64,000 nucleotides of DNA from Ylistrum balloti (GCF_031769215.1 NW_026782491.1:334882-398881), one strand, 5' to 3'. Positions 12,240 to 41,742 are shown, numbered from the stretch's first letter. The notes: generated by a model from the letters alone, not told the origin. Numbers and translations: made by a program.

Positions 12240-13871
12240 TTACTCGATGCGCGATAGCCCATCAGCGTTTGCATTGTTTGAGCCTTTTTGATAGTTAATG
12301 TCAAAACAATAGGGCTGTAATGCTAAGGCCCATCGCATCAGTCTCTGGTTTTTCAGTTTGGTTTTCTCCAGCCAAACTAATGGGTTGTGATCAGTCTCAA
12401 CCGTGAACTGAACACCATTCAGATAATATCCAAATGTCTCAATACTCCACACAATGGCTAAACATTCCTTCTCTACTGTCGAATAGTTAATTTCACGTGG
12501 GAGTAGTTTTCGACTCGTGTACGCGACTGGGTACTCATCACCGTCAACCTTTTGGCTCAGAACTCCACCTATAGCTGTGTTACTTGCGTCCGTTTGTAGA
12601 TAGAAATGCTTTTCAAAGTCAGGGTTGATTAACACTGGAGCTTGTGTCATTGCATCCTTCAGAGCCCTGAACGCGTTCACTCTATTTTCGGTCCATACAA
12701 CTTTTGTAGGTTCTTTTGATTTTAACATATCGGTCAATGGTTCCGCGATTCGTGCATAGTCTTTCACAAATTTACGATAATATCCTGTCATTCCGAGGAA
12801 TGATCTTGCTCCCTTTTTGGACTGAGGGAGTGGAAAATCAGTCATGACTTTTATTTTCAGGTCATTAGGCTTGACAGATCCATGGCCCATTTTGTTACAA
12901 TTATAACACCTGACATTCTTCATTGGCTCATCAGAAAAGTTCTTTTTCGATTCCGTCTTTGATGTTTCTACGGAAGCTTGACTAACCTGTGTTTTGGTTT
13001 TTGTTGTACTCCTCTCCGGAAAAATATAATCCTCTGCTGCATCCACAACAGTTCCAGATCCTTTGTTCCTGCGGATCCATTGTGCCTGTGACACTGGAAG
13101 AGCACTGAGGAAAAGTTCCTCTTCTATTTTCCCAAGAACATCTTCACTGTCATCAATGAAACGTATGACATATTGTTTCACTCTTGCCATAAGTCCACGA
13201 TATGTATCTTTTTGATGTTTTTGGACATCCAATAGCATTTTGAAGTATTGATATGGCTTTTTCCCATACCTTTCTATCAAAGCCTTTGACAGATCTTCAT
13301 ATGATTTGTGGGCTTGAGCTGAAACTTTACGAGCTTCTCCTGTTAGTAGACTTCTTAATTGAAGCATTTTCATTTCCAGAGTCCAGCCAGCTTGTGATGA
13401 TAATGCTTCAAACTCAGCGAGATAGGATATAATGTCCTCGCCTGAAGCATGATCATAAGGCTGTAGTTTCACTCTACATGGCACAGCACTTGCATTGTTT
13501 TTGTTTTCCAGCTTCAGTTTCTCAACTTCAAGTTCCATCATTTTAAGCTTTAGCTCAGCGTCCTTCCTTTCTTTTTCAGCTTCCATCCTTTCTTTTTCAA
13601 GTTTAAGTTCAGCTTCCATTTTCTCTTTTTCAGCTTTAAGTTCAGCTTCCCTTCTTTCCTTTTCAGCTTCCCTTCTTTCCTTTTCAGCTTCCCTTTCAGA
13701 ACGTAAGTTTCTTTCTTCAGCCTCACGCTGAAGTTTTTCACGTTCTAACTGAATCTTCTCCTTTTCTACTTCTGCTTGGAGCTCTAACTTTCTGATTTCT
13801 ACTTTTGACTGAGCAGCCGATAACTTCTGGGCTGCGTCGGCAGTCTCTCCGTCTCCTGTGCCTGTCGGCAT
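12240..13871 (-). CDS. Retroelement gag-pol remnant: gag (coiled-coil, E/K-rich) + CCHC zinc knuckle + RT C-terminal connection + RNase H; no protease, RT core or integrase
   Basis: 543-aa ORF starting at an ATG. It carries the CYNCNKMGH knuckle, FLGMTGYYRKFVKDYARIAEPL (Ty3/gypsy RT thumb/connection), FYLQTDASNTAIGGVLSQ...AYTSRKL (RNase H) and a terminal NADGLSRIE. Confidence 0.8.
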   Translation of the reverse strand: MPTGTGDGETADAAQKLSAAQSKVEIRKLELQAEVEKEKIQLEREKLQREAEERNLRSEREAEKERREAEKERREAELKAEKEKMEAELKLEKERMEAEKERKDAELKLKMMELEVEKLKLENKNNASAVPCRVKLQPYDHASGEDIISYLAEFEALSSQAGWTLEMKMLQLRSLLTGEARKVSAQAHKSYEDLSKALIERYGKKPYQYFKMLLDVQKHQKDTYRGLMARVKQYVIRFIDDSEDVLGKIEEELFLSALPVSQAQWIRRNKGSGTVVDAAEDYIFPERSTTKTKTQVSQASVETSKTESKKNFSDEPMKNVRCYNCNKMGHGSVKPNDLKIKVMTDFPLPQSKKGARSFLGMTGYYRKFVKDYARIAEPLTDMLKSKEPTKVVWTENRVNAFRALKDAMTQAPVLINPDFEKHFYLQTDASNTAIGGVLSQKVDGDEYPVAYTSRKLLPREINYSTVEKECLAIVWSIETFGYYLNGVQFTVETDHNPLVWLEKTKLKNQRLMRWALALQPYCFDINYQKGSNNANADGLSRIE

Positions 13872-16612: not shown

Positions 16613-17221
16613 GACAACTAGTTTCACTTTTAGGAATTAATGTAAGGAGGGATCGATATATCTAAATACAGTATACATACTTTTAGTTAGTAGCATTGGG
16701 AAGTACTGAAAATGAGATGCTTTTTTGAAATTGAAATAGCAATGAAAGGTTTGAAATTTTGTCTCCAATTCTGAGGCAAGAAAAAGCTTTACGCTGAAAA
16801 ATTCATTTGAGACGGTCTCTGTAGGTGGTATTCGCTCGTTTATCGTAATTGTAGACCTTATCGAGGTTATAATATTGGTGCTATACTACTGTTCGTGTTC
16901 CAGAAAAAAATGAAAACAGTCTGCAAGGTATTTTCAATTATTTATTGTCTTTATTATCTTTCAACACAAATAAGTTAGTCAGCATTGAATAACGACTTAG
17001 AAATGCTGGATTCTGTAGTGATAATAAGGATAACTATTTTTAACGTCAGATGATCATGTCACCACTTTGATGAAGAACAAGGACACGACTTATCCGTCTG
17101 TCCTTTGATATCGGATGTTCCAAAGATACAGGGCTGCCACAATATACATTTATGTTACTTGGCCTGTCGCCATGACATTGACACAGTTTTTTTTTTAAAC
17201 TTATTCTTTCCTTTTATGTAA

Positions 17222-17900
17222 AATAAGACGTTCATCTACCTATATGAAGTAACACTGAATGTTTAGATTAGTTAACTATTTGTTGACACAGTGGTTAACT
17301 CGGCTTGACTCATATTGGCGCATTAGGTACTAATTTTGGCGCATTTATTGTATGAACATCCAATACTATGAAGTGGTAAGAGAAGCGTTGATCTTCGTTT
17401 GATTTCCATTTTGTAAATGTCCGTTGATAACAGATCCGTATATGTTCCTTTCACATTAAGTCACCCTTTAAAAAGATATGCTAATTACAGGTAAGTGTTA
17501 CAAATAATTATCGTCCTATAATATACAGGTGACGTGAATTTGCCTCTAAATATATCTTATATATGTCACGATGGCCGAGTGGTTAAGGCGTTGGACTTGA
17601 AATCCAATGGGATCTTCCCGCGCAGGTTCGAACCCTGCTCGTGACGTTCATTTTAGACTGGTCAATATTTTTTTTTATTTCTATCAGATCTTTAAACAGA
17701 TATGGATCCAAATTATTGTTACAAGAGAGGTTGTTGCCGATACATGAGGTGGCCTGTCAAGATATCATGAAATAAAAATTCAGTTAATCAGAGATAAGAT
17801 CAATTAAAATAGTGTTTAACATTATATTCAAGAAAATTGTCCTTACCAAATTATACCTTTCCAGCGGAAACTAAATCAGATATGGTTAGTTTCAAGAACA
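17222..17900 (+). repeat. Segmental duplication unit A, containing tRNA-Ser (copy 1)
   Basis: Collinear with 22208-23050 at about 95% identity. It runs from taagacgttcatctacc... through the tRNA, a T-run and ...caagaacacatggaaaag. Copy B carries a roughly 200 bp extra segment. Confidence 0.75.
17565..17646 (+). tRNA. tRNA-Ser (anticodon UGA), 82 nt with a long variable arm
   Basis: Acceptor GTCACGA pairs with TCGTGAC, followed by discriminator G. The anticodon stem ttgga/tccaa encloses loop cuUGAaa. The T arm is GGTTCGAACCC. A TTTT pol III terminator follows. Confidence 0.9.
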
Positions 17901-19097
17901 CATGGAAAAGTAACATCATTTAATCTAAAAACTTTTGGTTTATTAATATATTAAAATCATTTTTGTTATTCTGGAGAACGTAAACCTCAAATGGTCCTTT
18001 TTGTTTTTACGTTAGATGATCTTGTCAACACATTGATCAAGAACAAGGACACGACTTGTCCGTCTGTCCTTTGATATCGGATGTTCCAAAGATACAGGGC
18101 TGCCACAATATATATCTATGTTATATGATCTGTCAAACGAAATACCCAGTGTCAGATTTATAATGATGTTTCTGTTTTCTGGTATTTGTAGAACATAAAA
18201 CAATCGCCGTCCGTGTAACAAATTCGCTGCAGTTCACTAAAACAGTTATATACGCACAGTTTCCCGTCCGAGGTATACGTTTCTTTTGGGTTGCGCACAT
18301 TCCGACCATGTGAATAAAGGTGTCACTTTCAACTAGATTGTAATCGTCATGAACACGGTACCACTTAATAGGTAGATATGGTCTGAGGCGGCAGCGGAAT
18401 AGCACTGTTGATGACAAAAGTACCACCACTGAGAGTATATTTTTGTATTTTGGTATCAGTCTTTACTTACATCACTCTGTAAGTAATATCGTTGACGTAA
18501 ACGAAGCCTTGTTATGTATTTATCATGTACTTGTCGTCACACCGGAAGAAATCTATCAACTCTCACCAGTTGACCATCTGGGAGGAACGTCCCTTCAGAG
18601 AAATATCTATTCCGTCGCGATGCAAAATACTTACACTCTTTTACTTTACGCAGTCATCATAAGATCCACACTATCAAGACTCCCCATAGGACGAATGATG
18701 ACAAGGGAACATAGCAAGTCGGACGTGGATTACGGATCTTCGATCAGAGACAACTCTGGTTTCAACATTAGTGAATCGATTATTTCTTCGATCCTAGTAA
18801 AGGCACTCGACTTCCCTTGTCAGACCTACAGCAAGGATTGAATGAGCGATGTTTGATACTGCATCCTCGTTCCTAAACATTAATTGTGTTTCTCTATAAT
18901 CTTTTACTGTTGTTTTTATAGTATGAACATGAGCCGTTAGCTGAGTCTTCATCTGTTCCTGAATGACGAAGATTTGTCTACCAGATGCGTGATCTAAAAT
19001 TGTCGCCATTAAATTGACACAGTTTTCCAGGTTAACCTGAAGCATTTGAGTTTCTCTTTGCACTCTGAATTTTATTCCATTTAGCTTTTACTTTTGA

Positions 19098-19577
19098 CTA
19101 AAAAGATTCATGCAGCATATCTAACTTGTTCTTTGCTTTTGTTATCAAGCTATCCATAGATGCCAATGTGTCTGTGTACTCTTTGTCAACTCTTTCAGTT
19201 TGCAAAGCTTCGTGCTGCGAAATTCTTTGTATTTCCTTTTTCATATTTTCAAATTCCGACGTAAATGCTACTTTATCTTTGTGTTTTTCTACTTGCTTCG
19301 CGATGTCTTCAATATATCTGATGGTTCTACAGCCATTATGATGTGTTGGAACACAAAGAGTACAGCACAGTTCCCTGTGATACAAACAGAATAATTCTAG
19401 CATTGCTCGTGGGTGTTTTTGACATTCCTCGTTAGAACGACTGTAAGCCAGCACTTTGTTGCTCAAATAGTCGAGTTCTTTAATTTCATGTGTCCTTGTA
19501 AGTCTCACTTTCTTGTGAACGTCACAGCAACCTGAACATAACGCCTCACCACACTCCATGCACCATGCGTTGGCTAT
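19098..19577 (-). CDS. TRIM-like gene, exon 2: B-box1 + B-box2 + coiled coil (IANAWCMECGEALCSGCCDVHKK...CQKHPRAMLELFCLYHRELCCTLCVPTHHNGC...KLDMLHESF, stop)
   Basis: Two B-box zinc-binding Cys/His patterns are followed by a heptad-rich region. An in-frame stop lies at about 19098. The downstream ORF 18794-19063 may be further C-terminal sequence in another frame. Confidence 0.6.
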   Translation of the reverse strand: MANAWCMECGEALCSGCCDVHKKVRLTRTHEIKELDYLSNKVLAYSRSNEECQKHPRAMLELFCLYHRELCCTLCVPTHHNGCRTIRYIEDIAKQVEKHKDKVAFTSEFENMKKEIQRISQHEALQTERVDKEYTDTLASMDSLITKAKNKLDMLHESF

Positions 19578-19845: not shown

Positions 19846-22207
19846 GTTTAAATCAATGTTTTTTAAGTATTGTCTCTTACCAAGCAAAAAGATCAAGAAA
19901 TCCTGTTTGATTTACGTTAAACATCCGCTATAATGTAATCAGCTTCCTTATTGATGACTCTCAAATGTTCGCCAGCTCAGAACATCATTACAGTTCACGT
20001 AAGACTGGAAATCCCAAATGACCTATGTCTTCCAGATAAAATGTACACGTCTTTTGATACCCATGTAAGGTTGTGACATTACGACTAGCCAAGCGTGTAC
20101 TTGAGTTACGAGTATCATTATAGTGTAGCCTTGTGGGAGTTACTTTTCTTGATTACATCATCCGATTACCAAAACCTTCATACAATTATGAAAAATTAAA
20201 TTGGTAAACTCATGATGAAGTAGATAATTTGAAATTTCATCCTCTTTAGGAGTATTTTTGTTTGTATTACACTGATGATATTGTATAATTTTGATAGTTT
20301 CGAATCTGTGCCTTAAAAAATAAAAAAAGAGCTTTCCATGAAGCTTATATCCCATCATGTCAACATTGTCTGAAACATTTGCTTGATAGACAGGCATCCT
20401 AAAATATTTTCCTTTGGAAAAAGTTGAGCATTGAAAAAAAAAGATATTTTAAGTATTTTTAACAGTTGACTTGGAAAAGATGGCTTTTGATGACCAGAAA
20501 TCGGCGGAAAATGTTTAAATAATTTCCATTTCTCTATTACAGTTGTTATTGTAATGTAGTTTATAAACATATCTGTTGATGTAATCTATGTCTCTTCTAC
20601 CGTCTACTATAAAGTATAGAAAATCAATTATTACCAATGCAGATTTTCTTATTTTCAATACAACAAATAAATGTTTTGAAAGGAATTTCATACATGTAAG
20701 AAACGTATCAGGTACTTTTAAAATGTATACAGGGCATTTCTTTACATTCTCACTTGTACTTTATACCTTTGTCATATTTACAAATTTGTAAAAGTATTGT
20801 TTTCAAAATGCATTCATTATTTTTAATTTACCCTTACATGTATGAATAAACATGTAAAACAGTAAGTAGCTTAAGTTTAAGCTCAAATTAAGCGCAATTA
20901 TGTTAAAGCTTAACTTTAAGCTTAAATTTAAGAATTTTATAAACACAAACAGGAATTAAATCATGGCTAACTACATGAAACCGGAGGCCACTTATGACAC
21001 AATCCCAGAAATAGTTTTGGATATCATCTATCGCATAAAAACCATGGAAAGGAAACATTACATCGATAACGTGCAAGTGCTCACTTGGAATTGTTTTCAT
21101 GAATATTCATATTTTAGCTACATAGTCCAATATCTCGATTTTGTGACTGTGTCCATGTTTCGATGTAGAGCAACGTCGAGCATGGTGAACATCTGAATGG
21201 GTGACAGATCCGAGTACCAACTTTTGGAATTAGTGAACGGATTTGGTATTCTTTAGGGTGCCATTTGACTGGACGGAGAGCACAATGTTTTTTTCTTTAA
21301 AAGGGCGGATTAGTCTAAAAGTACAACGCGAGCTGAATTCGAACCTGTACCGAAAAATCCCATCTGCTCACAAGTATAACGCCCTAACCATTGGCTATCG
21401 ATATAAATACTAAGTCCTAGAAGGATGAAACAGCTGTGTGATTTTTATTACAAGGTGCTATTCACTGTTTGTCTTTTGTACAGTCTTACGTCTTGTATAT
21501 TTAGAATCAATATAGATTTCATACATATGTTCTATTATACGCGATCAACATATGTGACAATATATAGGTAAAATGTAGATTGTGGATATAAAATCGTTTA
21601 AATGAACAGAGGTACGGATGTGTCCATAATTATAAGAAGAGGTAGAACAAGAACAAACTGACGGAGGACTAGTTCTGAGGTTATCTAAATTCAGCTGTTG
21701 CAGTGTTTGTTTGTACAATGTAGTTGAATAGGTTTGGATTAAATGAGGGAAATTACAGGCATATACCTGCCTTGTAATTAGGGTGGGCAACTTCCTGGTG
21801 TAAAATATTGCAGGTGTTGATAACATCCACTTTATAAGAAGACGATAATATTCCCTTTCTACCTACACCAGGGAATGGAATCGTAACACAAGGTTCTCTT
21901 TGGCATCCTTTATCACTGGTGTTGAAAACTTCTAGCCTGTCAATACATATATTATGCAAACTCACCTAACAGATTTTGAACACCAATTAGAGCAATTGTT
22001 ATTGTTATGTTTTTCAACCTGAAAAACAACTCTCTTTTATAAGTAGAATGTAAAAACAACAAAATTATCTTTTAAAATTATATGGATTTGAAAGCCATGC
22101 ATTTAAATGTGATCCTTTATGAATGGAAGCATAATGCTTTGAAATCAAGTCATACCGGCTTGTAAGTATGTATATACTAAAACACAATTTCTCGACCTAG
22201 ATTTTTG

Positions 22208-23050
22208 ATGTTAAATAAGACGTTCATCTACCTCTATGAAGTAACACTGAATGTTTAGATTAGTTAACTATTTGTTGACACAGTGGTTAACTCGGCTTGA
22301 TAAATATTGGCGTATTAGGTACTAATTTTGGCGCATTTATTGCATGAACATCCAATACTATGAAGTGGTAAGAGAAGCGTTGATCTTCGTTTGATTTCCA
22401 TTTTGTAAATGTCCGTTGATAATAGATCCGTATATGTTCCTCTCACATTAAGTCACCTTTTACAAATATGCTAATTACAGTGTTACAAATAATTATCGTC
22501 CTACAATATACAGGTGACGTGAAGTTGCTGCTATATATATATTGTATATGTCACGATGGCCGAGTGGTTAAGGCGTTGGACTTGAAATCCAATGGGATCT
22601 TCCCGCGCAGGTTCGAACCCTGCTCGTGACGTTCATTTTAGACTGGTCAATATTTTTTTTTATTTCTATCAGATCTTTAAACAGATATGGATTGACATTA
22701 TGGAGAATTGCTTCATAGATTAAGGATTATGAAAAATTTATATTTTTAACCTGTCTTACACTAGAACACCGTTGTATATAAAATGGTATTAATTTTATTG
22801 TGGAATTCGCATTATTTGACTCACGCATCCGATACCAGTGTCAGATTTTAAACATTTAGATTAACCTTTGCCCATTATTGCTACAAAAAATGAGGTGGCC
22901 TGTCAAGATATTATGAAATAAAAATTCAGTTAATCAGAGATCAGATAAATTAAAACAGTGTTTTACATTAGATTTAAGAAAATTGTCCTTAACAAATTAT
23001 ATCTTTTCAGCGGAAACTAAATCAGATATGGTTAGTTCCAAGAACACATG
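22208..23050 (+). repeat. Segmental duplication unit B, containing tRNA-Ser (copy 2)
   Basis: Collinear with 17222-17900. Confidence 0.75.
22550..22631 (+). tRNA. tRNA-Ser (anticodon UGA), identical to the copy at 17565
   Basis: Same 82-nt sequence, same flanks and a T-run terminator. Confidence 0.9.
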
Positions 23051-23099
23051 GAAAAGCAACATTATTTGCTTAGATAATATTCTCGCTTACAATTAGAAG

Positions 23100-27198: not shown

Positions 27199-28332
27199 CT
27201 ATTCGAGAGACAAAGTGAGGAAGGGTGATGAAGCAAACTTGGGATTATCCATGTACAAATTCATCTTTCTGTCAATAAGGTCAAACAATGCCGTTGCTAC
27301 AGTCTGTGAACTGTCTGTGGCCCTAGGTGTTCGATAAATTGGATACTTAGCATTATTCGTGTCACCCAGGATCGTCTTCATTTCCTCCAGTGTCGAAGGC
27401 GGTTTAAACTCTAGCATACGTTCCATTCGAGCTGTTGATGATGACAAATTATCCATTTCCTTGACGCTCAGATGTTTGTAATTGTTGCTATGCAGATAAC
27501 ATGGCGAATCGTCGACTTTGGTCTGTTCTTTAAATGTTTGCAAATTGGTCATGCCTTCATTCGCGCCGGGGCCTATTTCCAACCCCCACATATCACCAAG
27601 ATTTTTCCAGTTCCCCATGTTCAGATTAAACCCGACAGCACATCCGCCTCCCACGTTCTTGCCAATTTCTAGCGCATGTTCTGCGGTTTTGGCAGCCATC
27701 ATAGATCTGTTCAGGAAAAATCTCGGAGTCGCCCCGACTATAGCTGTTATGGGATAGAGTCCATTGCATCCAAATATCATACCATGCTGATTAAAAGCGA
27801 ACGTATTGCCTGGTAAACTGCCGGGGTACGAAAAGGTTGTGAACTTTTCGTCAGTGGAGTCTTCTATGACGTGAGCACTGACAATGTAGCCAGAGGTTCT
27901 TGATTGTGGATCACAGTCCTCATTGTGTCCTATCAGCTTCACCGCCTGGGTGTTGATCATAATGTCTGAACATCCCAGGTTATCAGATTCCGGGGGCCAA
28001 GTTTCCATTTCATAACAATGACAATTATAAACTTCCTTTGCAATATTAAGCAAAAAAATGTCTTCAAATGCCATTCCCACGCCATCGGCCATACCTTGTA
28101 CCTCACGAATCAGCTTGGGGAAGTGATCACGTGCCCCTCTGAGGTAAATTTCTGTTATTTCTCGTCCACGTTTTTGGGAGTAGAACGGAAGTAGTTTCTC
28201 CTGAACTAATAGTGAACTCTGGTAGAACAACTTAATTCTATTCTGGAACGTAACACCAGTATGGTATCCGACATCATAGTGATTACCACGAACATGTAAA
28301 ATGGGCATAGAGACAGAGGGTGGGCTCGCCAT
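27199..28332 (-). CDS. Intronless peptidase C45 family protein (tan / acyl-CoA:6-APA acyltransferase-like N-terminal-nucleophile hydrolase), about 378 aa from the MASPPS Met
   Basis: Single 399-codon ORF whose first ATG is MASPPSVSMPILHVRGNHYDVGYHTGV. A Gly-Cys dipeptide (DNLG|CSDIM) sits at residues about 120/121, the position of the autoproteolytic G|C site in tan/IAT (family knowledge). The ORF is far longer than background ORFs in this AT-rich DNA. Confidence 0.6.
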   Translation of the reverse strand: MASPPSVSMPILHVRGNHYDVGYHTGVTFQNRIKLFYQSSLLVQEKLLPFYSQKRGREITEIYLRGARDHFPKLIREVQGMADGVGMAFEDIFLLNIAKEVYNCHCYEMETWPPESDNLGCSDIMINTQAVKLIGHNEDCDPQSRTSGYIVSAHVIEDSTDEKFTTFSYPGSLPGNTFAFNQHGMIFGCNGLYPITAIVGATPRFFLNRSMMAAKTAEHALEIGKNVGGGCAVGFNLNMGNWKNLGDMWGLEIGPGANEGMTNLQTFKEQTKVDDSPCYLHSNNYKHLSVKEMDNLSSSTARMERMLEFKPPSTLEEMKTILGDTNNAKYPIYRTPRATDSSQTVATALFDLIDRKMNLYMDNPKFASSPFLTLSLE

Positions 28333-30295
28333 ATCATCAGTTATTCTGTAAATGAAACAAATTCTATAATTTGGCAACAGTATTTCATGATCAGTCAAGA
28401 TAAATACTTAAATGGATATTGTTAACTTAATTATTTCTGCAGCAATTACCCATAGCTCCTTCAAGAATATTTTGCGGCGATTTTTTCAACCACTGTGTTA
28501 TCGAACACGTGTTCGATTAAAAATATAATGTCATTCTCACACACGCATCAATATATTGGTAATCATAACAAATATGAATGATATATGTTTGTTGTCTGTT
28601 TCTGTTTCCTCAATGGAAAAAAATGTTAACATGACGTACGTGTACTACATAATTTTCTTCTTTTTCTTTTCAATTTAGATATTTGAAATTTAATGGTTAG
28701 CCATCCACAATTTTGCCGAAATTTACTAAACATTTATCTGAAAAAAATAGAAGACGAAAATATTATTTATGTTGCCCTACAAGGTCTATTAGTTTGCAAA
28801 AGGTACATTTTTTGTAATTTGTAATTGAGCACGCATGCATAAGTTGTTGTGTTGGTTGTTCACCGGAAGATAAATATACGTGGGTAGCAACATTAAACTT
28901 TTCCCTTTGTAAAAAGGTAATTGATATCATATCCTAGACATACACAGATAAATGGAGGGATTGGTTGTATTACCAGTGAACATAAACATAGAGGAGCGAT
29001 CATGCGTAAAATAATGATACGGCAATGATCTTTGCCATGTCAAGATATGAAAAATAATTACTTTGCATCGCCGTCGGTGAAAAGAGTCCGAGTGATCTTT
29101 CTCCTAAATTGTGCAAATACTGCATGTATTGAAAGATGTTATTAACCTATATATCTCTATGTTATAGAACGTTGCATCTCCCACATAGTCTTAATGGCAT
29201 CCTAAGTAGGTTCATTCATCAGATTATCAACATATCAAATATTCACTTTAAAAAAAGAAACACTTCAAACCTATTTTCCTCATCAAAAATGTAAAGCATT
29301 ACTATTTTTATCTGTACACACATGAAGAATCCTACTTCTGAGGATGTTGATATGTAAAAGCTGGTTACTTACTTGACAAGTTGTAGACTATAAAGTGTTT
29401 TCTGCAGTCAACAATATACTGTTGCCTATGAACTACTTCAATATCTGCGCAGTTGTTGCACACGTTGAATGTGTACACAGTCAGTTATAGTGACCCAGTT
29501 TTTGTCACAGCCTTCTATAGTACGTAGCTTTGTTAAGAAACAATTACATAAGTATAGAAGCAGGATCTACTAGGGTCAGGGCTAAGTAGTATACACTGAA
29601 AAATACGCTGAAAGGGGGAAACCCTCGACGAGATAGTAAAATATATGAAAGCCTATTTGTGACATATTACTTTTTCATCTAGACATATAATCAATAGGCA
29701 AGCTATGTTTCATCATGTTTGTTTTTGTATTTTGGTGAAAATGAATGTATCAGTGTATAACTGATAAATATGGAGAAATGTAAACAATTAACGCTCTCAG
29801 AATAATTTATGTTAAATGAGAAAGATTCGGTTGGTAACATCACCGTTACCACCTCTTAGTTATATATTTCCCGAAAGATCCAAATCTGCTGTTGGTTCAT
29901 TACAGTTTCACTGTTATGATTGAGTTTTGTTTTTTTCGGTATGGCCGCCTGTGAAACACTTTACCTGCAATTTAATTGACCACAAAAATGCCATGGATGA
30001 AGGATTTCAACAGCTCCAAATAAAAATGAAGCATTTATGCACCGTTAGAGGATATTTTTGCTTCTATTAAAAGTATTGATTTTCAATACAATCGTAAAAA
30101 TGAAAGAAACAACAACAAAAAACACTCAATTATGAGCATAAAGCGATGGTACAAAGGATAAGGCATTTGATTGTAATGAAAACAAGTCGTAAGACGGAGC
30201 ACACCGTTAATATACCACCAATTACTCTCGATTACGAATCGATAAACATGTTCAAGCGTATAATTAAGTCTTCCTGCTATACATAATACATAAGT

Positions 30296-33816: not shown

Positions 33817-35686
33817 CTATTTTTTGTTCTCCAGCACAGACAAACCATTTTGGTGAAGTTCTCAATTGACGCATTCGTTCGCTTGATATCAGAATTCATT
33901 ATACTGTTTCGTGTAAGGTGTTCATTTCTGAATTACTTGATTGTTACAATGATCTTATCAGTTTCTTCCTTATTATGGTTTACTGGTGTTGGATTTAAGA
34001 GTTGACATCTAGAAAACGATGAGAATCCCATGAAAGTGTGAATATCATTAGGAAACATAAAGGACACAAGGAAATTGTTGGTATTGAACAAGAGAATTTA
34101 AGTGCTGAATTATTTATCGACACCAACGCATGATTGATTTCTCGCCTTGTATCTTAGTTTGATCTATTAGAATTGGTTGTGGGGGAGTTTCAGAATTCTT
34201 CATACAGAAAATGAGAAATTTATTTATTAATTATGGTAATAGCCTTTCAATATTATCAACAATCTTGACACGTGTATCTACAAGATAAGTACATTTAATG
34301 ACGGGTGCTGTTTAATTCAAAACTGCCACGGCATTCTGCATTTGCCTCGCAAACCGTAAGCTATGGCTACATTATGTCAATTGAAACATGCTACCGTGCT
34401 TATCTCTGAAATCATGGAGAAAAATGTCATTTCTATCGTAAACCATTTTATGTCAAATTAAACAATTTAGATCACTCAATTCATTTGATGTTTGTTGTGC
34501 TTATTGTAGTCAAAATACGTGTATAACATACACTTTCAGTATGTGTTTCCAGATTATTTTCTTAGTTAATTGTATCCTCTCCATCATTCCTTGTGCTCTA
34601 TCATCGACTGGTACTTAAATATCAGTTAAGCAGTACATAAATACCGTTATTAAGATTTTTTAAACATTAATTTAATACATATATAGGCATGTTTAATCAT
34701 CAATTGAGAGGGAAATGAATGTGTTCAAGGTTGTAATTTTTACATATATCAATCGATTGTAAGCATGGTTAACTATTCAATCAAATCAATTAAAACATAT
34801 CACATATTTACACATGATCTTCGGTGAGAAGGGCCGTAAGAACTTGTTTTAGAAGCATTTGTCTTTTTTTGACATAAGATTTGTTTAAATAAAATCACGT
34901 TGGCATACTTATTGGATATTGAAATATCCATATGATTTCCTTAATGTAGAATTCTTCTCTGTGCCGTGAATGTTTCGTCAACTTTCGTGGATTATTAATT
35001 ATTAGTTATGATATCGTTTATTGTCAGCCGTGAAATATATTACAAATTTCGCATAAAAAGCATAACAACGTCGCAACCGATGGCTTCAAAGCGAAAAAAA
35101 ATATTATGGACTTCCAAAAAAATTAGGAAGCTTCCACATTCGTAGAAGCTAAGCGGAAGGGTTATTAAAATTATTAATTGTGACCAATGATCAAGGACGT
35201 TTGGAAACGCTTCCAAGGACAGGACAGGTGTAAATGATTTGTTATTAGCTATTGCCGGAGTGTGATTAAGACAAGAACAGAAATAAAATATGAGTATAAA
35301 GTTATGTGTTTTGTATTAGCAATGCCCAGGTACATATATAATCAAACATTATTATCAACATTCCAATAAAAAAAATGGAACAAATTATAGAATTATTGAC
35401 AATATTGTCAAAGTATCGTTATCAGAAGATGGCGATCAGCCAATGTATCTGAAAAACACATTAAGAAGTTACCAAGTAATACATATCATTGTTAACTCAA
35501 TATAAACGACATATTTTGGTTGCTTAAAACAATCGTGCGAAAATGTATGCAATATTGTGTAAATCTTAGCTTTTCTTGTCAGTTGAATTTTATTTAATAA
35601 ATATAGATGTATGTAATTTCCTGATATAAAATATCAAAATTGTTTCATACAAAAACAGTTAAACAACATAAAACATATACATACGT

Positions 35687-35890
35687 TTAGAGGTTGACGG
35701 TGACAGTGAGTCCGCCTTTGTCGAGAGTAAGATGCTGTGTCTTTACAGTTTGACCGCTGTGTTTAATTCGGATTGTGTAATCTCCCATAAACCCTGATGC
35801 GTGTACTGTATTTCCGGTCACAGATTTAGTCACGTGAGTCCGCCATGTTTGGTGGAAGAGTGTTTGATACCTTCGTCCTGCAGCATTGGG
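35687..35890 (-). CDS. GH10 xylanase gene, exon 11: C-terminal extension ending VTVNL, stop
   Basis: Follows a cag acceptor in phase 0 and is continuous with exon 10. Stop is TAA at 35687-35689. Confidence 0.6.
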   Translation of the reverse strand, partial: PNAAGRRYQTLFHQTWRTHVTKSVTGNTVHASGFMGDYTIRIKHSGQTVKTQHLTLDKGGLTVTVNL

Positions 35891-36160
35891 CTAAAAAGCA
35901 AAATCGATCCTCATGATGGTTATAATTCAATATAAAGAAAAATCTTTTAGCAAAACATACATTAAAATACTTATGTACATGTATATCTATACGTAAAAGG
36001 TTAATGTGTGATATCTGGTTTTTTTTTCTTCTTTGATTTGATTTGGCCGTGTTTCTTAAAAAAATTGCATCCCTGCATTAAGTATCGCTCGGGTACATAT
36101 TGTAAATTTTGTGCCTTCCTTTCGCCTGCACATTCAGAACACACTCATTAAATGCGTTAC

Positions 36161-36376
36161 CTGTACATTAGATCCTGTTGCTAAAGCAGAGTTAGGTAGC
36201 CACAGTTGTCCATCCCAAAATCCCCACAGCAAAACCCCTTCAACTGCAGGGTGACTCATGAATAATGTCATCATATTTTCTAAAGCATTAGCCTTCAATG
36301 CTTCGTTAGCTTCATTTACCGTGAACTCGGTTATCCATATTGGGAGTCCTGCTTCTGCTATCTTGTCCAGTCGGTA
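36161..36376 (-). CDS. GH10 xylanase gene, exon 10: catalytic nucleophile region (YRLDKIAEAGLPIWITEFTV...GVLLWGFWDGQLW)
   Basis: ITEFTV corresponds to the GH10 nucleophile motif ITELD. WGFWD is the conserved C-terminal barrel motif. Confidence 0.8.
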
Positions 36377-37025
36377 CTGGACGTAACAGAGATAGCATAA
36401 AACAATAATTAAAATACATTATCAAACATTATGGTATATTAATATAATTAGATTATGACAACTTAGTAACGCGGGTCCAAGGTTTCTTAAAAATCGATTC
36501 TAGTGAAATGAGAACTGCATTTAAGTGAAATAAATCAAAACGTTTTAAACAGTTAAACTGATATCACGTATCAATAACGTCTTACCACTGTAAACGTACG
36601 AATGCTTATTGCTGCTAATTTGTGTGTGGCTTTAATTGTATGGCAAGTATGTCATTTTGCTGTTTTATTTTCTTCCTGTCTGCCACATTTTTATTATGTG
36701 TTATCATGTTTTGCCGAGGTCGTCAAGCTCCGCCAAACACTTTTAAAGAGTTTTCTTTAACGATATTACCTTTCATCACAAATCAGTCTAACCAGGAAAT
36801 GTATTCTACAAAAATGTAAAGATGTTGCGTTATTTGTCTATGTATTCTGAACTCAATATCAAGTGATTTCTTGTGAAACTAGGGTATGTCAGCTGTACTC
36901 TACCATCCTTCAATGACGAAGGGACAGTACAACTTTCTTTGCCAAACTTTAATGATGTAAGGGACAAGAAAATGTACACGACAAACCTTTTATGACGTAA
37001 GGGCAGATAAACGTACAATACTAAC

Positions 37026-37130
37026 CTTTAATGACGTAATATCCATGTGACTGTTTGTATGGCACTGAATGCCAATGCCATATAACGGGATTCCAGCGTT
37101 CTTCAGTTCCACAGCTTGTTGCTTGTATGC
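37026..37130 (-). CDS. GH10 exon 9 (AYKQQAVELKNAGIPLYGIGIQCHTNSHMDITSLK)
   Basis: Matches GH10 ...G.PIDG.G.Q.H. Confidence 0.8.
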
Positions 37131-37828
37131 CTAGTTATAAAGCAATCAGACTTATGATTTTATAAAAGTATGAAGACTGTTGAAATCTAAGATCGCTAAG
37201 GGATAATGTAGAAAAGATCCTTAGCAATTAAAATAAACCAATTGGTAGTCGTATCAAAATATGATGTCGGTTTTTTACAGATGTTTTTCAGTCAGTAAGA
37301 GGCATTACTTTGTTGATGAAGTCAACTGTACAAGAAAAAACATAAGTGCATAGTATCGTTCTATGAAAATTAAGCATTAAATACAGCGAAACGAAATAAT
37401 GAGTCAAAATGCACTTTACGTATGTTTCGTTCCCAAAGACTCATTAATGATGCTATGAGCCAGAAAGGTTGTAGTTACTGGGGTAAAATCAAAATGTGTT
37501 AAAACAATTTTCAACAGAGATGCAGAGACCCCATATTTCAGTTTGCATATCAAATATGAAGTGATTTCAAAACAAGGTCAAGTACAAATGCTTATTATGT
37601 ACCCTGCCCTAATTCAAATGAAGTAAACGTGAAATCCATGTTGATAATTATTTCCTATGTGGAAAAATGCTTGATGGCTATTAATGCAAATCTCCTTCAG
37701 AATTAACATAGTAGTAAAGACTGTTACAACCTACATGATAAGAAATATAGATGATAAAAATACAAAAATTGCAGCGACTTAAGAGATGAAATATGTTCAA
37801 TCACATTACATATTACAGTATTTCTTAC

Positions 37829-38000
37829 TGTGGTCATCTGACTTGAAGAGGCCACTGCGTATTCATTCAGAAACAGTTTCACTCCCGGCTCCGCCTGATG
37901 GATCCAGTTGAACATCTCCATACTTATGTTTGGGTGACCCGTATGCTGCTCAAAGTACATTCCGTGTAAATTTTCGTTGTATACATCCCAGTGCTCGAGA
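37829..38000 (-). CDS. GH10 exon 8: acid/base region (SLEHWDVYNENLHGMYFEQHTGHPNISMEMFNWIHQAEPGVKLFLNEYAV...)
   Basis: WDVYNE corresponds to the GH10 WDVVNE acid/base motif. Confidence 0.8.
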
Positions 38001-38290
38001 CTAACCGTGTGATATATACATCATGTAGATAAGTGTTGTATCCGAAAGTATATCAATTTGATGGTAAAGACATATAATTTCAAATTTGAATCAATTATTT
38101 GATTCTGAAACCATTATTTACTTTCGAAGTAACAAGATAGTATACCCTTAATGTAATACGCTTTCTGCAATAAATATAATACAAAAAAGTCGATTTAATA
38201 AGCCTTGACAAGTATGAATAATGTTTGTAATTCACTATATCACGTTGCAAAAAAGACGTGAAAATCACATTGTTCACATAAAATAAATAC

Positions 38291-38427
38291 CTTCCTCTAG
38301 TGCGTGATATGACATCATTAATATGTGTGTGCATAGCTTGTATCAGTGTTGATTGTCCCATTCCGTCAATCCAATCAGGATGTGTCCCGTGTGTCCCCCA
38401 AAACATGTTGTGTCCTCGGACCTTTAC
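38291..38427 (-). CDS. GH10 exon 7 (VKVRGHNMFWGTHGTHPDWIDGMGQSTLIQAMHTHINDVISRTRG)
   Basis: Carries the RGH..W....P.W GH10 motif. Its acceptor is ttatttgtag. The A-run at 38398-38404 reads 1 nt short of the ORF-track frame in my transcription (see notes). Confidence 0.65.
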
Positions 38428-38946
38428 ACTACAAATAAGTCGCTTAAGAAAATGATTTGAAATGTCTTTTTTATATCACTTAAATGTCAGCATGTCACAG
38501 CAGATTTCATATGCAAACCAAGAAAGCATTTCGGTAATATTACATATAATTTATGATGTGTTTTGGACCACTCTGCTGCAATCATGTTTAATGCAGAATA
38601 ACCTTCGCGATCATTTTCTTTGGAAATCTCCAGTCGAGTAAACCATTTATTCTTTTAATCATTAATTTGTGCTAACTAGAATCTTAGAAATTATGAATGT
38701 GAATTATCAGTGGTAAATTACAATTGATCATTGCAAGTATCTTCTGTTGCTTTAGCTTAAAGTGATCACTGATGCCAGTAATATTATCGAAATTGTGTTT
38801 CGTTCAAAGATAATAAAAAGAAATAAACCTCGCTTATTTACAATAAGTAATAGTGATTGCATTTTGAATTGAAATGACATATCGTCATTGTTTATTGTTC
38901 AAATTCTTTTCACGACTGAGATATTCAATAAAACTACAAATATTAC

Positions 38947-39002
38947 CCTTTCGCACGGAGGGCATTCACAGCTCTCATTGGTTTATCCAGATTTGGGTGA
39001 CC
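38947..39002 (-). CDS. GH10 exon 6 (GHPNLDKPMRAVNALRAKG)
   Basis: Homologous to GH10 ...ADRVVNFAQANGK preceding RGH. Confidence 0.55.
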
Positions 39003-39194
39003 CTGAAATGAAATATTTATTTGTAAATTAACAATATATATCTACCATATAGCCTATCGTTATATTTTCTATGCCATTTATATCTAAAAGTCAAAACATT
39101 TCTAAGCAGCGGTTTGAATGACAAAGGAATAGGATATCATAACCTGTTGATGAACACAAGATCGAGAAGTTGTATATTTGTATGTATTACTTGC

Positions 39195-39353
39195 CTGGCT
39201 CCATTCCATCTGTCGCCATTTAAGAGCGTTCTCCAGTACAGACCACTCAAAATTGTCGTAGAAAAATTGTTGGTATGCATGATACGACGAATCGACGATC
39301 TTGTTCGCTTCCACTACAGACCCAAATGCAAATTTGCTCTTCGTCTGTTGGAT
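39195..39353 (-). CDS. GH10 exon 5 (IQQTKSKFAFGSVVEANKIVDSSYHAYQQFFYDNFEWSVLENALKWRQMEWSQ), closed by a GC-AG intron
   Basis: ENALKW corresponds to GH10 ENEMKW. The donor is cag|GCAAGT, which matches the GC-AG intron consensus. Confidence 0.65.
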
Positions 39354-40265
39354 CTAAAAACAGAAAACGTTATGGACAAGTCTGTCTGACCGGTTAGTGG
39401 GTGTCTGTGGGAGAATGAGGTTTTAAACATATGGAAATAAAGATTTGGTTTCATATCAAATTGAACAACAGTGTTGCAATGAAGGTTGAACAAGTGTTAT
39501 TGTAATAAAGTTACCTCAACTTGGTAGCCAGACCCATGTATGTTGTGCAAACTGAAATATAATTATGAGTTTGGAGTATGATTTTGTTGACATGTTTGTA
39601 TTTTCTTGTTTTTATTTTACACCGAATGTTTTTCTGTGATAAAGCTATAATGCATGAGATTATTTTCAGATCTTTTTCATATAATTCGTTATGAAAAAAC
39701 AAACAAACAAAAAAACAAATCCTGGCCCAATAAAAAGTTATCGTTATAAGTAAAATTTTATAATGAATTTTTCAAAACATACTTTTAAAATCAAATGCAA
39801 GAATACTTCCTTTATGTCATGTAGGTCTCGTTTCTCTCTGATTTTGGAATGCAATAGTATACAACCATCATTTGAACTTTGCAAATGAAACCTATTTTAT
39901 TTCTTTTATCTCAATGTCATCCAATGTGTCCTTTTTCAACTCATCAGTTCATAGACAAACATTCAAGAAATAGTCGTGAACAATCTCTATGAATAAGATA
40001 ATATACTCGTGTCCAGGTAAACGTGGATCTATATCACATATCTCTGATATGGCTGCCTTGCTGGTGGCAGGTTTTGCATCTATTTTTATTACCAGACGTG
40101 TTATCATCGAGGATATTAGTGTTCTGATATATGTAAAAGATAGATATGTACAAACAAATACCTGTTATAACAATTGTAAAAAGATGAAATTAGAAACATA
40201 GTGATTCCGCGAGACTCTTATAACAGAATATTTTTACGGATATATTCTAGCACTATCGCATAGAC

Positions 40266-40426
40266 ATACTTGATTGTGATTGGAGCTTTTCTTATATTGT
40301 TTATTCTAGCGTTGGCCTCAGATTTCCAGTTTGCATCATATGGTAGAAGTTTGAAACTTGCAGAATCGACGAGATAGTTCACTTCCGGTTCAGCGATTTG
40401 AATATATAAGTAAATCTGATGAAGAT
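40266..40426 (-). CDS. GH10 gene exon 4: linker and start of catalytic domain (NLHQIYLYIQIAEPEVNYLVDSASFKLLPYDANWKSEANARINNIRKAPITIKY)
   Basis: The splice phase is consistent with exons 3 and 5. Confidence 0.55.
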
Positions 40427-40594
40427 CTGAAAACAAGGTAAGGAAAATATATACAATAAGTAGAAACTAGTTCTGTCAGTCTTTACGTTAATTAGAGATA
40501 TGAAATGAAACCTGTATACAAAAGACAAAAATATTCACATACATTACATTTATTTTGAAATGATGTTTTAGAAATACACAATATAATCACTTAC

Positions 40595-40687
40595 TGTTTG
40601 GAATTTTCAAGTCAAAACCAACGTTTACCCAACCGTTATCTGTCCGCACCTTAGGGCTATCACCAAAGTCGTGGTACTGGTCATGGC
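40595..40687 (-). CDS. GH10 gene exon 3 (GHDQYHDFGDSPKVRTDNGWVNVGFDLKIPN)
   Basis: Phase-consistent with its neighbours. Donor is gtaagt. Confidence 0.55.
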
Positions 40688-41043
40688 CTGCAACATTAAA
40701 GTAAGAAAATCATCAGTATTTCAAGTAAAAGATCTCCATGTGGATAAGTACTGAAAACAAAGAGATAAGAAATAATACAAGTTTACTGATGGCCGACGCA
40801 TTACAGTAAAAAGATTAGTTCTAGTTAAAGATAAGATATGAGATTGATATAAGTGAAAGTGTAGAAACATGACCAATCAGTTACTTGCAAGGTAATTTTG
40901 AGACTGAATTCTTAAATTGTCGGCTCTAAAACAAATTTGTATCCAGTTGCAAATAATAAGTCAATTATAGAGGATAATTCATCTTGTCATTGATACGCAA
41001 CGCTTCTATCAAACGATTAACAAATATTGCTATTTATAGTTAC

Positions 41044-41189
41044 CATTGATCGTCTCCTTTACCATGACCTCGACCTTATGGAACATGTGACCTTGTGCCA
41101 TGTTAAGCAGTTTGACATGTGCACTAAAGACATACCTTTGACCAGGTAACACGTTAATGGTCTGGGCTATTCCAGACCAGCTGTGTTGT
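41044..41189 (-). CDS. GH10 gene exon 2: CBM4_9-like carbohydrate-binding module (RQHSWSGIAQTINVLPGQRYVFSAHVKLLNMAQGHMFHKVEVMVKETING)
   Basis: Shows the pattern GW...G......V.L.PG..Y..SAWVK typical of CBM4/9/22 modules fused to xylanases. Confidence 0.6.
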
Positions 41190-41563
41190 CTGGAACATAT
41201 ACCAGCAAATTTGACAGCAATTAACACTCCAACATTTAAATATGATCATGATCAAATTTCTAGAATTTCCGTATCTAAATATAAATGTATATGAGTACAT
41301 TATCCTAGCCTCACAATGGGGATATTGTCGCTTAAAGCATATATGTATGTTTCTGTGAATTATTCCTATAATATAACCTTTGCAGGAACGTAACATACTG
41401 TTTAACGATTGACTAAATATTTGTGGCTTTTTTTGAACAGATGTGCCCATTTAAACATTAATTATATAGTTAGAAAATATGAAATTATGAAGAAACTACT
41501 AAAATAATTTGAAATTTGACTAAAATTATAAAATATCAATTAATAAAAATAAAATATTTATAC

Positions 41564-41742
41564 CTGTTTGTTATTTTAGCACTATGGTGCCCATGATAGC
41601 TGGAAGTGCTTCTTGACAAAGTGCATGCTTGGCAAACCCAGTTTCCGGAAAATGATATGCTCTCAAAATCCGGATTTTTCAGAAGCTCTGTATCACCATA
41701 GATCAAAACGACAAACGGAAGCAGAAAGAAGAGTACGTCCAT
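41564..41742 (-). CDS. GH10 gene exon 1: signal peptide + start of CBM (MDVLFFLLPFVVLIYG DTELLKNPDFESISFSGNWVCQAC...)
   Basis: ATG at 41742-41740 on the - strand, then a hydrophobic h-region and a YG cleavage-like site. Donor is aacag|gtataa. Confidence 0.65.

Follow-up and report, generated by a model that had tools for sequence, protein, structure and literature searches.

Glycoside hydrolase (GH) family 10 enzymes have already been described from molluscs. According to Wang et al. 2020 (PMC7560691), GH10 is one of four GH families that are "remarkably expanded" in molluscs, with 2–13 copies (the first species column of the table lists 8), and the molluscan genes commonly bear a carbohydrate-binding module (CBM) and are expressed mainly in the hepatopancreas in scallop and oyster. 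GHF10 enzymes of apple snails have been listed (PMC4123733), and the GHF10 genes of Pomacea, which have 9–13 exons, have been tied to the cloned "multifunctional cellulase" EGX (PMC6573481). Here we analyze a gene of this family that lies on the minus strand (41742..35687) of a 64,000-nucleotide stretch of the genome of the scallop Ylistrum balloti (GCF_031769215.1, NW_026782491.1:334882-398881; the whole stretch is hereafter called the window, and positions are counted from its first letter). Like the molluscan GHF10 proteins, which include the apple snail EGX/"Ampullaria crossean" cellulase and to which it is 33–87% identical over the full length, the protein has the CBM_4_9 plus GH10 architecture and multiple paralogs per genome, and its gene has 12 exons compared with the 9–13 of Pomacea. 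Nothing categorical sets it apart, and the Ylistrum copy is labeled "uncharacterized protein" in RefSeq, where the entry LOC132559101 [Ylistrum balloti] is 100% identical to our protein over its whole length. Thus, the finding is correct but already known: the gene belongs to a published molluscan family of GH10 genes, and RefSeq contains the identical protein. The view taken in the original prediction, which was made from the sequence alone, that molluscan examples are few gives way to a described, expanded, CBM-bearing family (PMC6573481; PMC7560691). The next-best protein matches are two from Mizuhopecten yessoensis (85–87% identity) and proteins of Pecten maximus (79%), followed by dozens of bivalve, gastropod, and chiton proteins and by proteins of the annelids Owenia and Capitella, nearly all of which carry both PF02018 and PF00331.

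The gene is complete, with its ATG starting at 41742 and its stop codon ending at 35687, and joining 12 exons by their splice sites gives a coding sequence (CDS) of 1662 nt that encodes 553 aa with 0 internal stops. An independent exact spliced mapping returned identical exons, whose sizes are 179, 146, 93, 157, 37, 159, 56, 138, 172, 105, 216, and 204 nt. The features of the gene, with their basis in brackets, are as follows.

41564..41742, minus strand: exon 1 (179 nt), the leader MDVLFFLLPFVVLIYG (residues 1–16) and the start of the putative CBM22-type module (splicing)
41044..41189, minus strand: exon 2 (146 nt), CBM module (splicing)
40595..40687, minus strand: exon 3 (93 nt), CBM module (splicing)
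40270..40426, minus strand: exon 4 (157 nt), end of the CBM and predicted linker helix (splicing, AlphaFold2 model)
39515..39551, minus strand: exon 5 (37 nt micro-exon), predicted beta strands directly ahead of the barrel (splicing)
39195..39353, minus strand: exon 6 (159 nt), start of the GH10 barrel with ENALKW, followed by the GC-AG intron (splicing)
39003..39194, minus strand: intron 6 (192 nt), GC-AG (splicing)
38947..39002, minus strand: exon 7 (56 nt) (splicing)
38291..38428, minus strand: exon 8 (138 nt), RGHNMFW (splicing)
37829..38000, minus strand: exon 9 (172 nt), WDVYNE with the predicted acid/base E331 (splicing, alignment)
37026..37130, minus strand: exon 10 (105 nt), the GIPLYGIGIQCH motif with Q401 and H403 (splicing)
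36161..36376, minus strand: exon 11 (216 nt), ITEFTV with the predicted nucleophile E431, and WGFWD (splicing, alignment)
35687..35890, minus strand: exon 12 (201 nt plus stop), predicted C-terminal helix and five-strand tail, residues 487–553 (splicing, AlphaFold2 model)
35593..35598, minus strand: ATTAAA, a possible polyadenylation signal 89 nt past the stop (motif only)

These coordinates and strand are exactly those originally proposed, and all six GH10 motifs named at that time are in the protein, where they start at residues 245 (ENALKW), 280 (RGHNMFW), 326 (WDVYNE), 392 (GIPLYGIGIQCH), 429 (ITEFTV), and 465 (WGFWD). The count of 11 exons needs correction to 12 coding exons, and the easily overlooked 37-nt exon 5 may be the one that was missed. 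Ten of the 11 introns are GT-AG and, as had been claimed, one is GC-AG (intron 6, donor at 39194). The orthologous intron of Mizuhopecten has a GT donor. In Crassostrea virginica (CM130316.1), where GH10 genes of 573 aa and 577 aa stand in tandem, it is intron 1 of the mapped copy that has a GC donor. Since the GC donors of Ylistrum and C. virginica fall at differing introns, GC-AG introns appear to arise sporadically within the GH10 family.

Searches with the profile hidden Markov models of Pfam place both predicted domains above their gathering cut-offs, as the original prediction anticipated. Glyco_hydro_10 (PF00331) matches residues 208–490 with 160.4 bits against a cut-off of 22.1 (E = 7.9e-47), and CBM_4_9 (PF02018) matches residues 19–150 with 52.6 bits against a cut-off of 25.9 (E = 8e-14); apart from a weak Glyco_hydro_cc match across the barrel, these are the only domains. 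An AlphaFold2 (AF2) model of the 553-aa protein, built with 42 homologs, has a mean predicted local distance difference test score (pLDDT) of 94.3 and a predicted template modeling score (pTM) of 0.91, with low confidence solely in the N-terminal leader. In a Foldseek comparison of this model with the PDB, the best match is XynA of Bacillus sp. KW1 (7D88/7D89; template modeling [TM] score of 0.91 on the target). GH10 structures match at E values down to 7.6e-36, with TM scores of 0.79–0.91 for most single-domain GH10 targets, and the two-domain CBM22-GH10 structure of Xyn10B (2W5F) is matched over the full length. The predicted fold is therefore the GH10 (beta/alpha)8 TIM barrel, and the continuity of this fold across the exons, on which the original prediction had made itself depend, is borne out by the pLDDT of the model and its Foldseek matches.

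The flanks of the barrel belong to the same plan. Residues 169–207, ahead of the barrel, align with the N-terminal flank of XynA (7D88), and residues 491–545 with its last 55 residues. The AF2 model has two strands before the barrel (186–194 and 201–210) and one helix and five strands after it (489–552), and we infer that the pre-barrel strands and the tail may pack as a small beta unit. A C-terminal extension of about 68 aa had been singled out together with the CBM-GH10 fusion as worth characterizing. The stretch does exist, at a length of 63 aa past the Pfam GH10 envelope, but neither it nor the fusion is peculiar to this gene, as the two co-occur in bacterial, plant, and other animal homologs. 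The same tail is found in bacterial, plant, coral, and amphioxus homologs and, as judged by these alignments, is a feature of the family rather than a novelty of the scallop gene.

When the N-terminal module is searched alone against the PDB, its best match is CBM22-2 of Clostridium thermocellum Xyn10B (1DYO/1H6X, E = 7e-8), followed by 4XUP/4XUO, which we take to be CBM22 modules of Paenibacillus Xyn10C. Because the best solved match is CBM22-2 of Xyn10B, we regard the module as CBM22-type. The ligand-binding residues of CBM22-2 are presumably R25, W53, Y103, Y136, and E138. In a pairwise alignment with the scallop module, W53 and Y136 are kept as W64 and Y147, E138 and R25 are replaced by Q149 and Q38, and Y103 corresponds to H114, with a tyrosine one residue earlier. 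The leader, MDVLFFLLPFVVLIYG, is followed by DTE, with Gly at -1 and then D17; it is strongly hydrophobic (Kyte–Doolittle mean up to 3.15), and equivalent hydrophobic leaders occur in homologs. The protein is likely secreted, judging from this leader.

Several solved or described systems can be compared with the scallop protein. The best solved relative is XynA (PDB 7D88/7D89/9RHV), which aligns with residues 169–545 (E = 1e-63) at about 33% identity. XynA is thermostable, bacterial, and intronless and lacks an N-terminal CBM, and its thermostability is not expected of the scallop enzyme. Xyn10B of C. thermocellum (XynY; 2W5F, 1DYO) likewise places a CBM22 at the N-terminus, ahead of a GH10 barrel (identity of about 19%), but, unlike the scallop protein, is cellulosomal and has a dockerin, a second CBM22, and an esterase module. 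Plant XYN1-type proteins ([CBM22]n-GH10), represented by Nelumbo LOC104589125, have the same order of modules, with both the pre-barrel segment and a C-terminal tail in place, and the Nelumbo protein is about 30% identical to the amphioxus member of the family across 98% of its length. The Nelumbo gene differs from that of the scallop in having several CBM repeats and seven introns, with the whole catalytic domain in a single exon. Finally, many molluscan homologs carry the NCBI name "anti-sigma-I factor RsgI6-like," and BsXyn10, which is 89% identical to XynA, is 48% identical to A3DH97 (PMC9221164). A Pfam search of the scallop protein gave no match to an anti-sigma domain. We take A3DH97 to be RsgI6 and reject the RsgI6 identity as an artifact of annotation, given that the similarity is confined to the GH10 domain and that Pfam finds no anti-sigma domain.

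The catalytic machinery is preserved. Besides acting as an endoxylanase, XynA degrades Avicel, carboxymethyl cellulose (CMC), and cellobiose, and its catalytic pair consists of E182 and E280 (PMC6408826). In a phmmer alignment, E331 (in WDVYNE) and E431 (in ITEF) of the scallop protein align with E182 and E280, the positions mutated in 7D89 (E182A/E280A). Across the 42 aligned homologs, E331 never varies and E431 is conserved in at least 90% of the sequences. The -1 and -2 subsites of GH10 structures are generally formed by E, N, K, H, W, Q, H, W, and W residues, and in the scallop protein the subsite residues are all kept (E245, N246, K249, H282, W286, N330, Q401, H403, W465, and W468). By profile, fold, catalytic glutamates, and subsite residues, the protein is a member of glycoside hydrolase family 10.

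The gene also appears to be in working order. A 1829-nt Logan contig from run SRR19746228, which comes from a related species, contains an uninterrupted orthologous open reading frame (ORF) of 553 aa with 82% amino acid identity. It aligns with the spliced CDS over 1660 nt with 0 gaps, and its matches to the genomic window end at the proposed exon borders. This contig supports every exon junction in the manner of a transcript, from a related species rather than from Y. balloti. The ratio dN/dS, with dS near saturation, is 0.06 against the Mizuhopecten ortholog and 0.05 against the SRR19746228 contig. As GH10 forms a multi-copy family, with at least four paralogs in Y. balloti and a tandem pair in Mizuhopecten, one might suspect that this copy is a decaying, non-functional duplicate. 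However, the ORF is intact, every splice site is usable, the catalytic residues are kept, and dN/dS is 0.06; we consider a pseudogene very improbable and reject that reading.

The structure of the gene, its intactness and selective constraint, its fold, the conservation of its catalytic and subsite residues, and its residence in an animal genome have direct support, and it is very probably a functional nuclear scallop gene for a modular digestive glycoside hydrolase whose secretion, tissue, and substrate we infer. From N- to C-terminus the order would be the hydrophobic leader, the CBM22-type module, a linker helix, the GH10 (beta/alpha)8 barrel, and the small beta-strand tail. Catalysis would follow the retaining double displacement of GH10, with E331 as the acid/base and E431 as the nucleophile. 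The expected activity is that of an endo-beta-1,4-xylanase acting on the xylan of algal or plant food particles, to which the CBM would hold the enzyme. Cellulosic substrates might also be attacked to some extent, as is reported for the closest characterized relatives, and by analogy with other bivalves the gene may be expressed in the hepatopancreas.

Certain observations weigh against parts of this proposal. Position 2 of the leader is Asp, and a basic n-region is lacking. Just two of the five ligand residues of CBM22-2, W64 and Y147 in scallop numbering, are kept, making the ligand of the CBM putative. The transcript-type support stems from a related species and not from Y. balloti itself. 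The substrate is assigned solely by homology, at 30–35% identity to characterized enzymes, and GH10 enzymes vary, with activities on xylan, on mixed-linkage xylan, and on cellulosic substrates as side activities all known. Therefore, a real gene whose main substrate is something other than beta-1,4-xylan, namely cellulose or beta-glucans, or the mixed beta-1,3/1,4-xylan of red algae, has to be considered. The homologs of Pomacea and Rapana are named "cellulase," the apple snail EGX has been described as a multifunctional cellulase (PMC6573481; PMC4123733), XynA itself degrades Avicel, CMC, and cellobiose (PMC6408826), scallops eat microalgae and detritus rather than wood, and the ligand-binding residues of the CBM are conserved only in part. 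Nevertheless, xylanase is the main activity of XynA and of the GH10 enzymes compared with it (PMC6408826, Table 3), and the canonical -1/-2 subsite residues are all kept. We regard such a substrate as rather unlikely, though less so than any of the other alternatives weighed here, and xylan as the better candidate.

The age of the gene was addressed by mapping introns in eight species, namely Ylistrum, Mizuhopecten, C. virginica, Liolophura, Owenia, Capitella, Lingula, and Branchiostoma. All 11 scallop introns are common to C. virginica in both position and phase. Six are common to all eight species (given as residue/phase, these lie after 192/2, 276/2, 380/0, 415/0, 487/0, and 322/2, the last matching in Capitella within one alignment column), and each of the other five is common to at least three non-bivalve species. 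In Branchiostoma, nine of the 11 are exact (60/2, 192/2, 205/0, 258/0, 276/2, 322/2, 380/0, 415/0, and 487/0) and a tenth is one column off, a coincidence between scallop and amphioxus for which a binomial estimate gives a chance of about 3e-17. The sizes of successive exons are correspondingly alike, at 37, 153, 56, 138, 172, 105, and 216 nt in amphioxus and 37, 159, 56, 138, 172, 105, and 216 nt in the scallop. Thus, an intron-bearing gene predates the split of protostomes and deuterostomes. None of the seven introns of Nelumbo is common to the scallop, and the lone coincidence with amphioxus lies in an extra N-terminal CBM region. The catalytic domain of Nelumbo is a single exon, so introns lend no support to a common eukaryotic origin.

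A neighbor-joining (NJ) distance tree of 150 sequences, computed with bootstrap from the barrel and tail, has the topology (coral,(amphioxus,lophotrochozoans)), in which the coral Porites is represented by protein alone. Bootstrap values are 77% for lophotrochozoans, 82% with amphioxus added, 71% with the coral added, and 18% for animals plus plants. Of the named extra sequences in the animal clade of a first tree, every one that was looked up is an animal protein.

Animal enzymes that attack plant cell walls are usually read as horizontal gene transfers (HGTs) from bacteria, and a mollusc-specific or otherwise fairly recent acquisition would fit the patchy distribution of GH10 among animals: the relatives come from molluscs, annelids, a brachiopod, amphioxus, and one coral, with no vertebrate or insect protein among the matches listed. 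Transfer into animals is also documented, in that the GH10 genes of Phytophaga beetles, which are animal-encoded and have introns, two of them conserved, derive from a separate transfer from Actinomycetia (PMC13601563); no beetle GH10 was among the relatives found for the scallop protein. However, intron positions and phases are common to scallop, oyster, chiton, annelids, brachiopod, and amphioxus, which argues against independent transfers, since separate transfers would not yield shared introns. Furthermore, the gene tree mirrors the species tree, and any transfer must predate the bilaterian ancestor. A recent acquisition is thus improbable. We favor, as the probable history, an ancestral bilaterian and possibly eumetazoan gene whose 11-intron structure was essentially complete before the split, and which then persisted with hardly any change for more than half a billion years in molluscs, annelids, brachiopods, and amphioxus but was lost in some lineages, among them vertebrates and ecdysozoans. 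Of the earlier suggestion that animal GH10 genes are old horizontal acquisitions, the age stands: this is an animal GH10 lineage with its introns in place ahead of the protostome/deuterostome divergence. Its ultimate source could be either bacterial transfer or deep eukaryotic ancestry.

The composition of these proteins varies around the catalytic core. Amphioxus has at least 10 GH10 paralogs, and its GH10 carries two CBM modules in tandem that look alike in the sizes of their exons. In Lingula and Liolophura the C-terminal part of the GH10 proteins bears Cys-rich PCSK9-like domains (PF18459/PF18463), which have introns of their own that are shared. Domain shuffling around a conserved GH10 core has therefore taken place in amphioxus, Lingula, and Liolophura. 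A protein of Porites harrisoni, which branches just outside the bilaterians, combines WSC, CBM_4_9, GH10, and the tail and aligns over its full length.

The neighbors of the gene in the window are eukaryotic. In Mizuhopecten yessoensis (NEDP02005302.1; locus L002, 1-16919), two tandem GH10 genes, LOC110461311 and LOC110461355, lie about 3.7 kb apart with a tRNA-Ser gene between them and an AAT-family (PF03417) gene after the pair, and the 12 exons of the fully mapped copy equal those of the Ylistrum gene in size. In the window, a single GH10 gene is likewise accompanied by two tRNA-Ser(UGA) genes and an AAT gene without introns, in agreement with the conserved flanking genes that were to be looked for in related species. 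Besides GH10, the following features were annotated in the window.

27199-28398, minus strand: AAT-family ORF, 399 aa, intronless, PF03417 (acyl-CoA:6-aminopenicillanic-acid acyltransferase-like), E = 3e-27 (Pfam)
17564-17647, plus strand: tRNA-Ser(UGA) gene (sequence)
22549-22632, plus strand: tRNA-Ser(UGA) gene (sequence)
12240-13871, minus strand: 543-aa ORF with a Glu/Lys-rich, coiled-coil-like N-terminus and reverse transcriptase RNase-H-like domains (PF17917/PF17919) (Pfam)
19098-19559, minus strand: 153-aa ORF with a B-box zinc finger (PF00643) (Pfam)

The AAT ORF is 78% identical at the amino acid level to the neighbor of GH10 in Mizuhopecten, and its orientation with respect to GH10 is opposite in the two scallops. 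A tblastn search found no second GH10 copy in the window, and a tandem duplicate of the Mizuhopecten type is absent from the 22 kb upstream within the window. The single copy at this locus, compared with the tandem pair of Mizuhopecten, points to a lineage-specific duplication or loss.

GH10 combined with CBM_4_9 is an overwhelmingly bacterial architecture, and bacterial homologs match the protein over its full length at about 33% identity, as might be expected if a scallop-associated bacterium or an alga had contributed the gene through contamination or a chimeric assembly. Yet 11 spliceosomal introns, all with canonical splice sites, interrupt the gene, the same exon sizes and conserved neighbors recur in Mizuhopecten, and the animal sequences form their own clade. 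In addition, the GC content is 44% in the CDS, 30% in the introns, and about 33% in the window, so that the introns are like the window and the AT content is host-like as originally described. We reject contamination on the strength of the introns and the synteny with Mizuhopecten and find it scarcely credible. The original reading, a resident animal CBM-GH10 gene with a hydrophobic leader, is upheld by its 11 introns, the Mizuhopecten microsynteny, the eukaryotic neighbors, dN/dS of 0.06, and the continuous predicted fold.

Some further observations concern the neighborhood. The tRNA-Ser(UGA) pair lies within a duplicated segment of about 0.7–0.9 kb (17212-17921 and 22204-23067, about 5 kb apart and 93–96% identical). 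An odd element that is 95–98% identical between the window and Mizuhopecten (L002 8384-8496, between the GH10 copies) was resolved as these tRNA-Ser(UGA) genes. The 543-aa ORF is probably a truncated long terminal repeat (LTR) retrotransposon remnant, and it coincides with a local rise in GC and a negative GC skew. The B-box ORF probably represents a single exon, or a fragment, of a TRIM-like gene.

The conservation of introns across lophotrochozoans and amphioxus is the one result that goes beyond the literature found, with the proviso that the figures or supplements of PMC7560691 may already list amphioxus GH10. No published statement of GH10 as ancestral to Bilateria was found in a literature that was incompletely covered. 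The scallop gene is a clean example of an endogenous animal xylanase gene and a possible source of a cold-active marine CBM22-GH10 enzyme. The near-complete conservation of introns between scallop and amphioxus argues for an ancestral animal xylanase and shifts the default HGT reading of the family. If bilaterian ancestry is true, GH10 xylanases would stand beside GH9 cellulases in the ancestral set of enzymes with which animals digest the cell walls of plants and algae, and the pattern of loss across animals would then become what needs explaining.

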